Position numbers and translations under genes: made by a program | In this document: positions 12,982 to 14,977 of the stretch, piece after piece | Numbering within the stretch: the stretch's first letter is position 1 | Layout of the letters: each line of letters starts with the position of its first letter | Origin: a virus | Lineage: Duplodnaviria > Heunggongvirae > Uroviricota > Caudoviricetes | IMG/VR virus record: IMGVR_UViG_2671180460_000014 | Strand: one strand, 5' to 3' | DNA: 16,482 nt | The notes under the pieces: generated by a model | Databases searched by the model: none | Seen by the model: only the letters and a program-made list of their open reading frames with translations | Told to the model about the DNA's origin: nothing

Positions 12982-14406
12982 ATGTCTGTATTAATTTCGG
13001 GTGTGCTGACGGATGGCGCGGGACTCCCCATGTCCGGATACCATATTATTCTGAAAGCCAGACAGAATACATCCGCAGTGGTCATGAGAACGGTGGCGAC
13101 AGTGATGACAGGTCCGGCAGGAGAATATGCTTTTGAAGCTCAGACCGGAAAATATGACGTTTATCTTCGGTCGTGTATTGAAAGGGAATACTGTGTCGGT
13201 GATATTTCGGTTTACGACGACTCAAAGCCCGGCACGCTGAACGACTTTTTGACCGCTCTCGACGAAGGCGACCTCAAACCCGACGTGGTGAAACGCTTTG
13301 AGGAAATGGTGGCGCAGGCGCAGCAGAGCGCGGAAACGGCAACAGAAAGCGAACGACAGGCAGGGCAACATGCAGACGCTGCCGCCCGGGCAAAAGAAGA
13401 GGTAAAAAAACTGGTGGAAGGTGTTCAGCAGAACGCCGACGCGGTTGCGGAGGGTAAACAACAGGCCGAAACTCTGGTCTCACAGGTTGAGGATACCGCC
13501 GCAGAGGTCAGGCAGGATGCTGAAGCCGCGAAAAAGGCCGCATCTGATGCAGAGCATGTCAGGGAGGATATTGACACTGCGTTATCTGCGACACTGAAAA
13601 CGGCGAATCGCCTGTCAGAGCTGGCTGATGAAGGTGAAGAGGCTCAGCAGGAATCCCGTGGTAATCTTGGACTGAAAAGCGCAGCCACAATGACGCCACA
13701 GAGCGACATTCGCGACCGGACTGAAGGCCGTCTGGCGACACCTGGCGCATTTGGTTTTGGGCATATTTTTCTGCCCGCAGAGCGTATCCGTTTTAACACA
13801 GAGGATGATTTTCTGGCATGGGTAAGGAATGCGACGCCGGGTGAATATTTTGTTGAGGGTGGCAGTAAAATCATATCCGGAGGTGTGTTGTTTAACGGGG
13901 TGGTCAGCATCCGGTGGGTTGAGGCACGCAATAATCCACCGGAACCGCGATATACATCAAAGGCCATTATTTTCTACGGTATCAATGGCGATGTTTATTA
14001 CAGCCGCTACTGGACAACAGGTAATGGTTATCTGACTGGCTGGGAAAATCTGAAGATTACCTCACAGGACATTATCTCTCTTCTGTCCGGTATTGCTCCC
14101 GGTACCACGGACGGCTGGTACGGTACAGGCAGTCTTGTACTGGCGGCCTGTAACGGTGAGGGAGACGCAGACACCGACCGCCGGATAAAACGCGGTTACA
14201 ACTATCCGGGGTCACGTCTTAGCGCGGTTGAGTTTACGTGTTACGGTACGACCGGGACCGGGGTTAAATACAACGGCGGTGTTTCTGCGTACGTGCGGGG
14301 TTCTGGTGGTGGTATGCCGGGGACGTATCGGGCACTGTCAGGTGACGGGCTCGGGTCTGCCGGGTCAGCCAGTGTCATGATTGGTTTGTTCATACGTATT
14401 GCGTAG
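12982..14406 (+). CDS. Lambdoid side-tail-fibre-like protein (prophage tail fibre N-terminal domain, Ala/Gln/Glu-rich coiled coil, distinct C-terminal domain)
   Basis: RBS AGGAAA 24 nt after the gpD stop. N-terminus MSVLISGVLTDGAGLPMSGYHIILKARQNTSAVVM... is typical of E. coli/Salmonella Stf-type prophage fibres. Central QQSAETATESERQAGQHADAAARAKEE... is a coiled-coil stalk. Confidence 0.7.
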   Translation: MSVLISGVLTDGAGLPMSGYHIILKARQNTSAVVMRTVATVMTGPAGEYAFEAQTGKYDVYLRSCIEREYCVGDISVYDDSKPGTLNDFLTALDEGDLKPDVVKRFEEMVAQAQQSAETATESERQAGQHADAAARAKEEVKKLVEGVQQNADAVAEGKQQAETLVSQVEDTAAEVRQDAEAAKKAASDAEHVREDIDTALSATLKTANRLSELADEGEEAQQESRGNLGLKSAATMTPQSDIRDRTEGRLATPGAFGFGHIFLPAERIRFNTEDDFLAWVRNATPGEYFVEGGSKIISGGVLFNGVVSIRWVEARNNPPEPRYTSKAIIFYGINGDVYYSRYWTTGNGYLTGWENLKITSQDIISLLSGIAPGTTDGWYGTGSLVLAACNGEGDADTDRRIKRGYNYPGSRLSAVEFTCYGTTGTGVKYNGGVSAYVRGSGGGMPGTYRALSGDGLGSAGSASVMIGLFIRIA

Positions 14407-14413
14407 GTGTTTT

Positions 14414-14977
14414 ATGGAAATAAAACGCATCGAAAATGCGCGTTATCTTGAAAATGGCGCGATTGACTGCGGGGTGTTGTTTGATGGCATGGATGAACCG
14501 GTTCCGTATACGGCAACTGCCACGGATACAGCAGAGACAGGGCAGCGAGTCTGGCAGGAGCTGCAAAGCGGCAAATGGGGAGAAATAACGCCGTTCACCG
14601 TCACGTCAGAGATGCTGGAAGCAGCAAAAGCAGCCAAACGCCGGGAAATTGAAGCATGGCGTACAGAGCAGGAGGCGCAGCCATTCATTTTTGAATGGAA
14701 CGGTCATAGCTGGAACGCCGGCCCCGACTCACTAGCCCGTCTTTATCCGGTGGCGATGGCATCGAAATCCGACACAGCACGGGACGTCATGACGTGGGGT
14801 GATGCGGAAAATCAGCAGGTAAAGTTGTCAATGCAACAACTGGATGAACTGCTTACTACAATGGTTCAGGCGCAGGTTGATCGCAATGACGCGATTTATC
14901 GCCGCCAGCGGGAGATGAAGGAAGAGCTGAATAATCTGGAGGATTTGGGATCAATTCGGGCGTTTGATGTTGCATAA
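14414..14977 (+). CDS. Putative tail fibre assembly/chaperone protein for the Stf-like fibre (non-canonical Tfa family)
   Basis: ATG at 14414, 8 nt after the fibre stop. Function assigned by position only; it lacks the WP-x-P C-terminus of Tfa copies A and B. Confidence 0.5.
   Translation: MEIKRIENARYLENGAIDCGVLFDGMDEPVPYTATATDTAETGQRVWQELQSGKWGEITPFTVTSEMLEAAKAAKRREIEAWRTEQEAQPFIFEWNGHSWNAGPDSLARLYPVAMASKSDTARDVMTWGDAENQQVKLSMQQLDELLTTMVQAQVDRNDAIYRRQREMKEELNNLEDLGSIRAFDVA

Follow-up and report, generated by a model that had tools for sequence, protein, structure and literature searches.

Organization of the fibre-chaperone cassette

The DNA analysed here, referred to as the window, is a stretch of 16,482 nucleotides from a tailed virus of the class Caudoviricetes (IMG/VR record IMGVR_UViG_2671180460_000014). 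It corresponds to the late region of an Escherichia coli prophage integrated in ydfJ, a gene of the host; the prophage combines a head of the lambda type with a contractile tail whose genes follow the P2 order. Downstream of the gpD-type gene that ends this tail cluster lie a gene for a 474-aa tail fibre and a gene for a DUF4376 protein. The two form an intact and integral cassette, the last two genes of the late operon, and the fibre begins with an anchor of the lambda Stf type. The sheath, tube, and baseplate genes share one operon with the fibre gene, which places it in a contractile-tailed phage. The cassette and the gene preceding it comprise the following features.

11881-12957, + strand: gpD-type tail protein, final gene of the P2-order cluster, joined to the fibre cassette (phrog_52, E=1.5e-91)
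12958-12981, + strand: spacer of 24 nt from gpD to the fibre gene, with the ribosome-binding site (RBS) AGGAAA before the ATG (read from the sequence)
12982-14406, + strand: fibre gene, 474 aa (PF08400, "Prophage tail fibre N-terminal", residues 1-133, E=2.6e-56)
12982-13260, + strand: fibre anchor domain, residues 1-93, "type A" (PF08400; six-stranded beta-sandwich plus short helix in the AlphaFold2 (AF2) model)
13207-13356, + strand: conserved linker (..VYDDSKPGTLNDFLTALDEGDLKPDVVKRFEEMVAQAQQSAE..), at which recombination joins the anchor to the remainder of the fibre; it includes the floppy residues 92-97
13279-13656, + strand: helical shaft rich in Ala, Glu, and Gln, residues 100-225, presumed trimeric coiled coil (AF2 helix 100-132)
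13657-14406, + strand: putative distal receptor-binding region, residues 226-474 and stop codon (unrelated to the gpH fibre; matches to predicted fibres)
14414-14977, + strand: DUF4376 protein, 187 aa, presumed cognate chaperone (PF14301, E=1.3e-16 over residues 70-174; phrog_1141, E=5e-85)

A model that read the sequence without database searches had proposed a second fibre with a lambdoid Stf N-terminal domain and its own chaperone at this position (hereafter, the original prediction). Both genes proved to be real, with PF08400 and DUF4376 profile matches far above chance, and the open reading frames were placed correctly except for the start of the DUF4376 gene, which is not the TTG at 14381 but the ATG at 14414, 7 nt past the fibre stop codon. 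The lambdoid N-terminal domain was likewise recovered: besides the PF08400 match, a sequence profile comparison aligned residues 1-93 with the solved N-domain of lambda Stf (9e7m) at E=2e-17. The lambdoid character applies to the anchor, and it does not extend to the distal end or to the DUF4376 chaperone, which are unlike those of lambda Stf/Tfa. Matches of lambdoid Stf proteins to the 474-aa protein were limited to residues 1-174, and a gp37-like, OmpC-binding end was not found. The protein also gave no match to PF12571, the family present in the product of 4689-5921, and is therefore not a gpH-type fibre.

In the AF2 monomer model, the predicted local distance difference test score (pLDDT) fell below 50 at residues 92-97, followed by a helix at residues 100-132. 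The shaft, presumed to be trimeric, aligned with the coiled-coil region of XM1 gp40 as far as residue 203. For the distal region, no match below E=0.1 was found in the PDB; the nearest predicted viral structures were all tail fibres (Goslar, E=1.4e-12; Av-05, E=4e-11), and the fold searches yielded no receptor candidate. DUF4376 proteins have been found experimentally to be required as fibre chaperones in the Alteromonas phages V22 (gp27) and A5 (gp9) and in the Campylobacter CJIE1 prophage, and by analogy the product of 14414-14977 is presumed to be the chaperone that folds the distal region.

A signal scan of the junction predicted neither a terminator nor a promoter between gpD and the fibre gene. 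Because the gap measures 24 nt and lacks such predicted signals, co-transcription with the tail operon, as originally proposed, is plausible. Among 29 distinct type-A sequences the median pairwise dN/dS was 0.09, which shows purifying selection on the anchor, and all 19 complete type-A fibre genes were intact. We consider it highly probable that the 474-aa protein is an integral, functional fibre encoded together with its chaperone.

Structure and proposed position of the anchor

In Ur-lambda, residues 1-94 of Stf form a 12-mer collar where gpV and gpM meet on the bare tube; of the lambda Stf N-domain (StfN), only the beta4-beta5 loop contacts the tube, and a floppy linker leads into the coiled coil. 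The AF2 model of the window anchor showed the same succession of elements as lambda StfN, namely six strands, a short helix, a low-confidence segment at residues 92-97, and a long helix, and Foldseek superimposed it on 9e7m with a TM-score of 0.90 and an rmsd of 1.7. Further solved matches were the XM1 collar spike gp40 (7kjk; Foldseek E=1.7e-7, whole-protein profile E=1.3e-5, anchor-only profile E=4.9e-5 with 7kjk_A3), the neck-fibre domain gp82N of A-1(L) (8keg_a; Foldseek E=2.5e-3), and tail-tip proteins of mycobacteriophage Bxb1 (Foldseek). At the neck of XM1, which has a contractile tail, six trimers of gp40 are attached to the connector and to the tail terminator. Across the solved virions, the anchor fold was found at the tube or tip in siphophages and at the neck in both myophages.

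When the anchors of PF08400 fibres were compared, three types were distinguished by sequence and by the gene that precedes them.

Type A: directly after gpD, 32 loci
Type B: after Tfa, on Mu-type and other contractile tails, 51 loci
True lambda type: after lom or J, 26 loci

Types A and B share the sequence AQTGK at the beta4-beta5 turn, where the lambda type has VEYGQ; judged by sequence, this difference would fit a docking surface other than that of lambda. The sheath of a contractile tail would hide the bare-tube site to which lambda Stf binds, and the myophage precedents are at the neck; for these reasons we propose, by analogy and at about even odds, that the anchor ring sits at the neck and not at the baseplate. 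The neck genes at 551-2224 would then be the candidate docking platform. When the neck proteins of the window were compared with solved structures, only gpFII was recognised, and no homologue of the XM1 gp5 terminator was named.

The original prediction had assumed a P2-type baseplate as the point of attachment, analogous to the distal position of lambda Stf. The presence of Bxb1 tail-tip proteins among the structural matches favours such a mounting, as does the fact that the fibre gene adjoins gpD, a baseplate hub protein, where the tail operon ends. However, the lambda collar grips the bare tube and the distal-tail-protein ring, a surface that a contractile tail covers with sheath and baseplate wedges; among solved homologues of the anchor, those of siphophages are mounted on the bare tube and those of both myophages carrying this fold at the neck; and the same anchor type occurs on phages whose baseplates have no detectable sequence similarity. 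Attachment at the baseplate is thus unlikely.

It was also considered whether the anchor type co-varies with its docking partner, and this was not supported when the neck, sheath, tube, and baseplate proteins of phiP27, pPE4, and the window were compared, the first fibre and its Tfa being the only components shared. The neck proteins of the window are unrelated to those of phiP27; these two have the first fibre and Tfa in common, plus one short, marginal match in baseplate protein V.

Exchange of distal ends among tail types

The cassette was found as the last gene pair of lambda-type, siphophage-tailed prophages, in strain C5 (after J, lom, a long Stf, and Tfa) and in tcmA_3; on Mu-type tails, in A8 and in phage phiP27 (L56/L57); on a third type of contractile tail, in GmM062 and phage pPE4; and on a rearranged P2-like type. 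Residues 83-118 of the fibre are near-invariant across these tail types, and the identity profiles break there. Relative to GmM062, the anchor is 57-64% identical and the sequence past about position 13280 is 95-100% identical, with a jump to 97% over the linker stretch. With ETEC4073, identity is 88-95% in the anchor and drops below 55% in the distal region.

Behind type-A anchors, at least seven distal types were counted in fibres of 405-1047 aa, three of which also occur in fibres of Mu-type and other tails. Chaperone sequence varies with the distal type: its median identity is 92% within the type of the window and does not exceed 77% for other types. On gpH-type PF12571 anchors, too, the distal region of the window (90-93% identical) was found together with DUF4376, so that distal ends move between both anchor kinds. 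Two such loci, L158 and L159 (GCA_012340135.1 and GCA_012330505.1), carry a PF12571-anchored second fibre after Tfa with 90% distal identity, and the order there is fusion fibre, DUF4376 gene, and HP1_ORF34-like gene. The anchor stays linked to the adjacent tail gene, and the distal end is swapped together with its chaperone at the conserved linker among lambda-, Mu-, and P2-type prophages.

This mobility suggests another reading, in which the cassette is unmounted cargo, either a reservoir of receptor-binding modules or a fibre provided in trans to co-resident lambda-type phages. The movement of the cassette among unrelated tail types fits this idea, as do the type-A-like anchors that occur as an extra, second Stf in lambda-type prophages, the existence of one relative that lacks the cassette (locus L151, below), and the recombination between stf genes of two prophages in C5. 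Against it, 32 of the 35 loci with a type-A anchor have that anchor directly after gpD, the other three being a variant in lambda-type prophages; the spacer and its RBS are conserved; purifying selection is strong and every complete copy is intact; and the fibre gene lies inside the late operon with no terminator before it, the position of a structural gene. We regard the cargo explanation as improbable.

Strain C5 carries two stf loci of interest in their own right (NZ_CP010122.1). In a siphophage prophage at ssrA (1736460-1741401, L003), two PF08400 fibres stand in tandem, the first a long Stf with a true lambda anchor and Tfa, the second a window-like fibre (94% identical) with a type-A-like anchor and DUF4376. 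At 3572955-3574220 (L162), a P2-order stf gene, whose gpD-stf junction is 99.5% identical to that of the window, is cut at 211 aa and abuts head to head the truncated type-B stf of another contractile-tailed prophage. This looks like a chromosomal inversion through recombination between conserved stf segments of the two prophages.

Scanning representative genomes with the anchor profile gave few informative loci, most hits being lambda contamination in unrelated assemblies. Low-coverage contigs with J-lom-stf (L015-L031, L034, L036, and others) were present in GTDB representatives of Neobacillus, Kitasatospora, Leeuwenhoekiella, Shewanella, Pseudomonas, and other genera; their Stf N-domain is identical to that of lambda and their lom is 98-100% identical to lambda-type lom. 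These contigs in non-enteric assemblies are almost certainly contaminating lambda DNA.

Conservation of the gpD-fibre junction

Relatives were selected from IMG/VR by gpD alone, and 28 of them had enough downstream sequence. The fibre gene started 24-25 nt past gpD in 27 of the 28, and the gpD-fibre junction was present in 74 of 5426 complete E. coli genomes. Strain PapRG-04-4 has the same gpD-fibre-DUF4376 layout at ompW, 96% identical to the window; in ETEC4073 it belongs to a complete prophage at ompW, which also encodes terminase, portal, protease, decoration, and capsid proteins; and in strain A10 it adjoins zinT. The junction therefore occurs at no fewer than three integration sites (ydfJ, ompW, and the zinT side), with a near-identical spacer in PapRG-04-4, ETEC4073, and A10 and 95-100% conservation at the sites other than ydfJ.

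The single locus without the cassette (L151; IMGVR_UViG_2778261068_000003, 7095-8480) has a gpD that is 83% identical. An inverted repeat follows its gpD, and the host gene nadE lies about 550 nt further. This locus may represent the tail module before the cassette was gained or after it was lost.

Near the prophage end, the only mosaic joint is at about 14947, still within the 3' part of the chaperone gene, where PapRG-04-4 (ompW) diverges from the window. The remaining features of this end are listed below.

14978-15198, no strand: right arm of the prophage by the attachment site, non-coding (annotated as a DinI-like pseudogene in other ydfJ prophages)
15199-16482, + strand: host gene ydfJ, 5' end lost to prophage insertion (MFS_1, E=2.6e-37)

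The right arm is about 87% identical in the lambda-type tcmA_3 and Mu-type A8 prophages at ydfJ, which suggests, from sequence, a common attachment-site arm swapped among unrelated phages. The counterparts of 14947-15198 are 16020-16335 in L163 and 13920-14230 in L005. The small open reading frames between the chaperone gene and the truncated ydfJ (ydfJ') had no credible family match, and RefSeq labels the host gene "ydfJ, missing N-terminus" in A8 and tcmA_3.

The original prediction had offered, as an alternative, that the Stf module is left over from an older lambdoid prophage at ydfJ beside an unrelated P2-type tail cluster; lambdoid prophages with right ends of the form StfN-DUF4376-DinI'-ydfJ' often use this site and the final approximately 250 nt before ydfJ' resemble theirs, but we reject this very remote explanation, since the gpD-spacer-stf junction is conserved at other sites and thus not specific to ydfJ, the anchor type follows gpD in nearly all of its loci, and no prophage boundary was found between 12957 and 12982, the only site-specific joint nearby being the one at about 14947 within the chaperone gene.

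One further element deserves description. The closest relative of the window tail and Stf cassette, the ompW element of PapRG-04-4 (L001; NZ_CP049201.1, 2845225-2869319), spans only about 24 kb. It encodes an integrase, BRO-N, an Icd-like protein, RepA helicase, SSB, major capsid, decoration, and small terminase proteins, followed by the whole tail; portal, large terminase, and protease genes are not annotated, and it may be a deletion derivative or a satellite-like element.

Head, neck, and tail genes upstream of the cassette

Upstream of the cassette, the lambda-type FI and FII genes are followed by tail genes in the P2 order (V, W, J, I, H, two Tfa, sheath, tube, E, T, U, X, and D). The head, neck, and first-fibre genes are the following.

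36-554: FI-like head-completion gene, lambda-type, which opens the window
551-958, + strand: lambda gpFII-like connector (PF05354, E=3.4e-13; solved gpFII 1k0h, E=2e-7)
within 879-1661, + strand: Neck1/tail-completion protein (phrog_27)
1658-2224, + strand: phrog_1072 protein, neck/tail completion (phrog_1072)
4689-5921, + strand: gpH-type fibre, the first fibre system (PF12571, E=2e-16)
5935-6462 and 6490-7023, + strand: Caudo_TAP chaperones, tandem pair after gpH (PF02413, E=7.7e-18 and 9.2e-22)

The two Caudo_TAP chaperones share 35% identity, and the stretch they occupy (5935-7023) is GC-poor (0.39-0.42). A layout of H with two Tfa genes was seen in about ten complete E. coli genomes, and the close relatives PapRG-04-4, ETEC4073, and C5 have a single Tfa. 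The gpD-type protein is 30% identical to D of phiCTX and gave a weak PF05954 match (26 bits); in relatives, RefSeq names it a VgrG/Pvc8-family or late control D protein.

Proposed function of the second fibre

The explanation we consider best combines an integral fibre-chaperone cassette, two fibres on one virion, and a collar at the neck, and we assign it a probability of roughly 0.6. The fibre consists of an anchor of about 93 residues that is homologous to the lambda Stf collar domain, a floppy linker with a helical shaft, and an exchangeable distal region that the neighbouring DUF4376 protein would help to fold. The distal region and its chaperone are traded at the conserved linker, by recombination with lambda-type, Mu-type, and other prophages. 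The virion would carry two receptor-binding fibres, the gpH-type fibre on the baseplate and the 474-aa fibre, whose anchors, like those of XM1 and A-1(L), would encircle the neck at a level flanked by the head connector on one side and the tail terminator on the other. The second fibre would speed or broaden initial adsorption, a role suggested by lambda Stf and by the side fibres of T5. The distal part of the gpH fibre showed no similarity to that of the 474-aa protein. Since the distal ends of the two fibres are unrelated, it is plausible that the phage has two receptor specificities, in keeping with the dual receptor use first suggested for this locus.

Several observations weigh against this explanation. 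The XM1 gp40 match is distant (25% identity), and the number of ring copies differs among the precedents (12, 18, and 15). The type-B anchors of phiP27 and pPE4 are near-identical, and BLASTP detected no neck, sheath, tube, or baseplate protein common to these two phages; the anchor type may thus reflect linkage to the upstream gene rather than docking fit, or else the geometry of the ring may be what mainly determines docking. Anchors resembling type A or type B also belong, in a few cases, to a second Stf gene of lambda-type prophages. The cassette is dispensable for the tail, as L151 lacks it, and the distal region was modelled with moderate confidence (pLDDT 69). Finally, the phage collection held no cultured relative, the best gpD match being Hafnia phage yong2 (49% identical), a phage that lacks a fibre of this kind.

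The cassette is common, standard pipelines already annotate it in related prophages, and its analysis mainly extends known biology to a prophage family without a cultured representative. The main interest lies in the prediction, open to testing, that a P2-type virion would have neck fibres that can be exchanged; this raises a concrete structural question, the site of a lambda-type collar anchor on a sheathed tail. A more general proposal, on which we lean slightly to the negative, is that the PF08400 anchor is a collar module independent of tail type, through which one pool of receptor-binding cassettes would be mounted on the tail tip in lambda-type siphophages and on the neck in temperate, contractile-tailed coliphages. 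If it were correct, virions of this prophage family would bear exchangeable neck fibres besides their baseplate fibres, and host-range modules would flow freely among siphophage- and myophage-tailed prophages and between both anchor kinds. If the fibre is mounted, these common E. coli prophages would possess two independent receptor-binding systems, one of which draws on the pool of ends of lambda-type prophages that carry Shiga toxin and other virulence genes, with consequences for the strains they can reach. The modular layout of anchor, linker, shaft, and distal end with chaperone is also of direct use for retargeting phages and tailocins.

Comparison with known fibre systems

Searches of the literature for phiP27 fibres, PF08400, and a link between the lambda anchor and myophage necks returned no study of the cassette on contractile tails; the phiP27 record annotates it as putative tail fibres, and RefSeq annotates it routinely. 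Compared with lambda Stf and Tfa (Ur-lambda; 9e7m/9mgh), the window has a homologous PF08400 anchor (46% identity, TM-score 0.90), after which a flexible linker and a helical shaft are predicted, as in lambda. In both systems the late operon closes with the fibre gene and, directly downstream, a chaperone gene, and both fibres would be non-essential accessories. The window differs from lambda in its contractile tail, where the bare gpV/gpM site would be unavailable, in the AQTGK turn that replaces VEYGQ, in a distal region unrelated to the gp37-like, OmpC-binding end of lambda, and in a chaperone of the DUF4376 family instead of Caudo_TAP.

Phage phiP27 (NC_003356), an Stx2e phage, offers a close parallel in L56/L57, a PF08400 fibre that is 51% identical over its full length, with a DUF4376 protein. 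There too, the pair forms the last late genes of a lambdoid phage that has a contractile tail and a gpH-like fibre with Tfa. In contrast to the window, its tail is of the Mu type with another gene order, the cassette follows the Tfa of the first fibre and not gpD, the anchor is of type B (79% identical over the first 135 residues), and the distal type is different.

XM1 gp40 (7kjk) and A-1(L) gp82 (8keg) resemble the 474-aa fibre in having an N-terminal Ig-like anchor and a helical trimeric stalk (the latter presumed in the window) on a contractile-tailed phage. Both are distant (25% and 14% identity), their neck position is solved and that of the window fibre is proposed by analogy, and the distal parts and hosts differ. 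The chaperones V22 gp27, A5 gp9, and that of CJIE1 share with the 187-aa protein, a presumed chaperone, a C-terminal PF14301 domain and a gene directly downstream of the fibre gene, and in those phages fibre function needs the protein; the N-terminal part in the window is specific to its receptor-binding type.

The gpH/gpG system of P2 is itself present in the window at 4689-7023, and distal regions are exchanged between the two kinds of fibre, the distal region of the window being found on PF12571 anchors elsewhere. Unlike gpH, the 474-aa protein has no PF12571 anchor and is paired with no Caudo_TAP chaperone.

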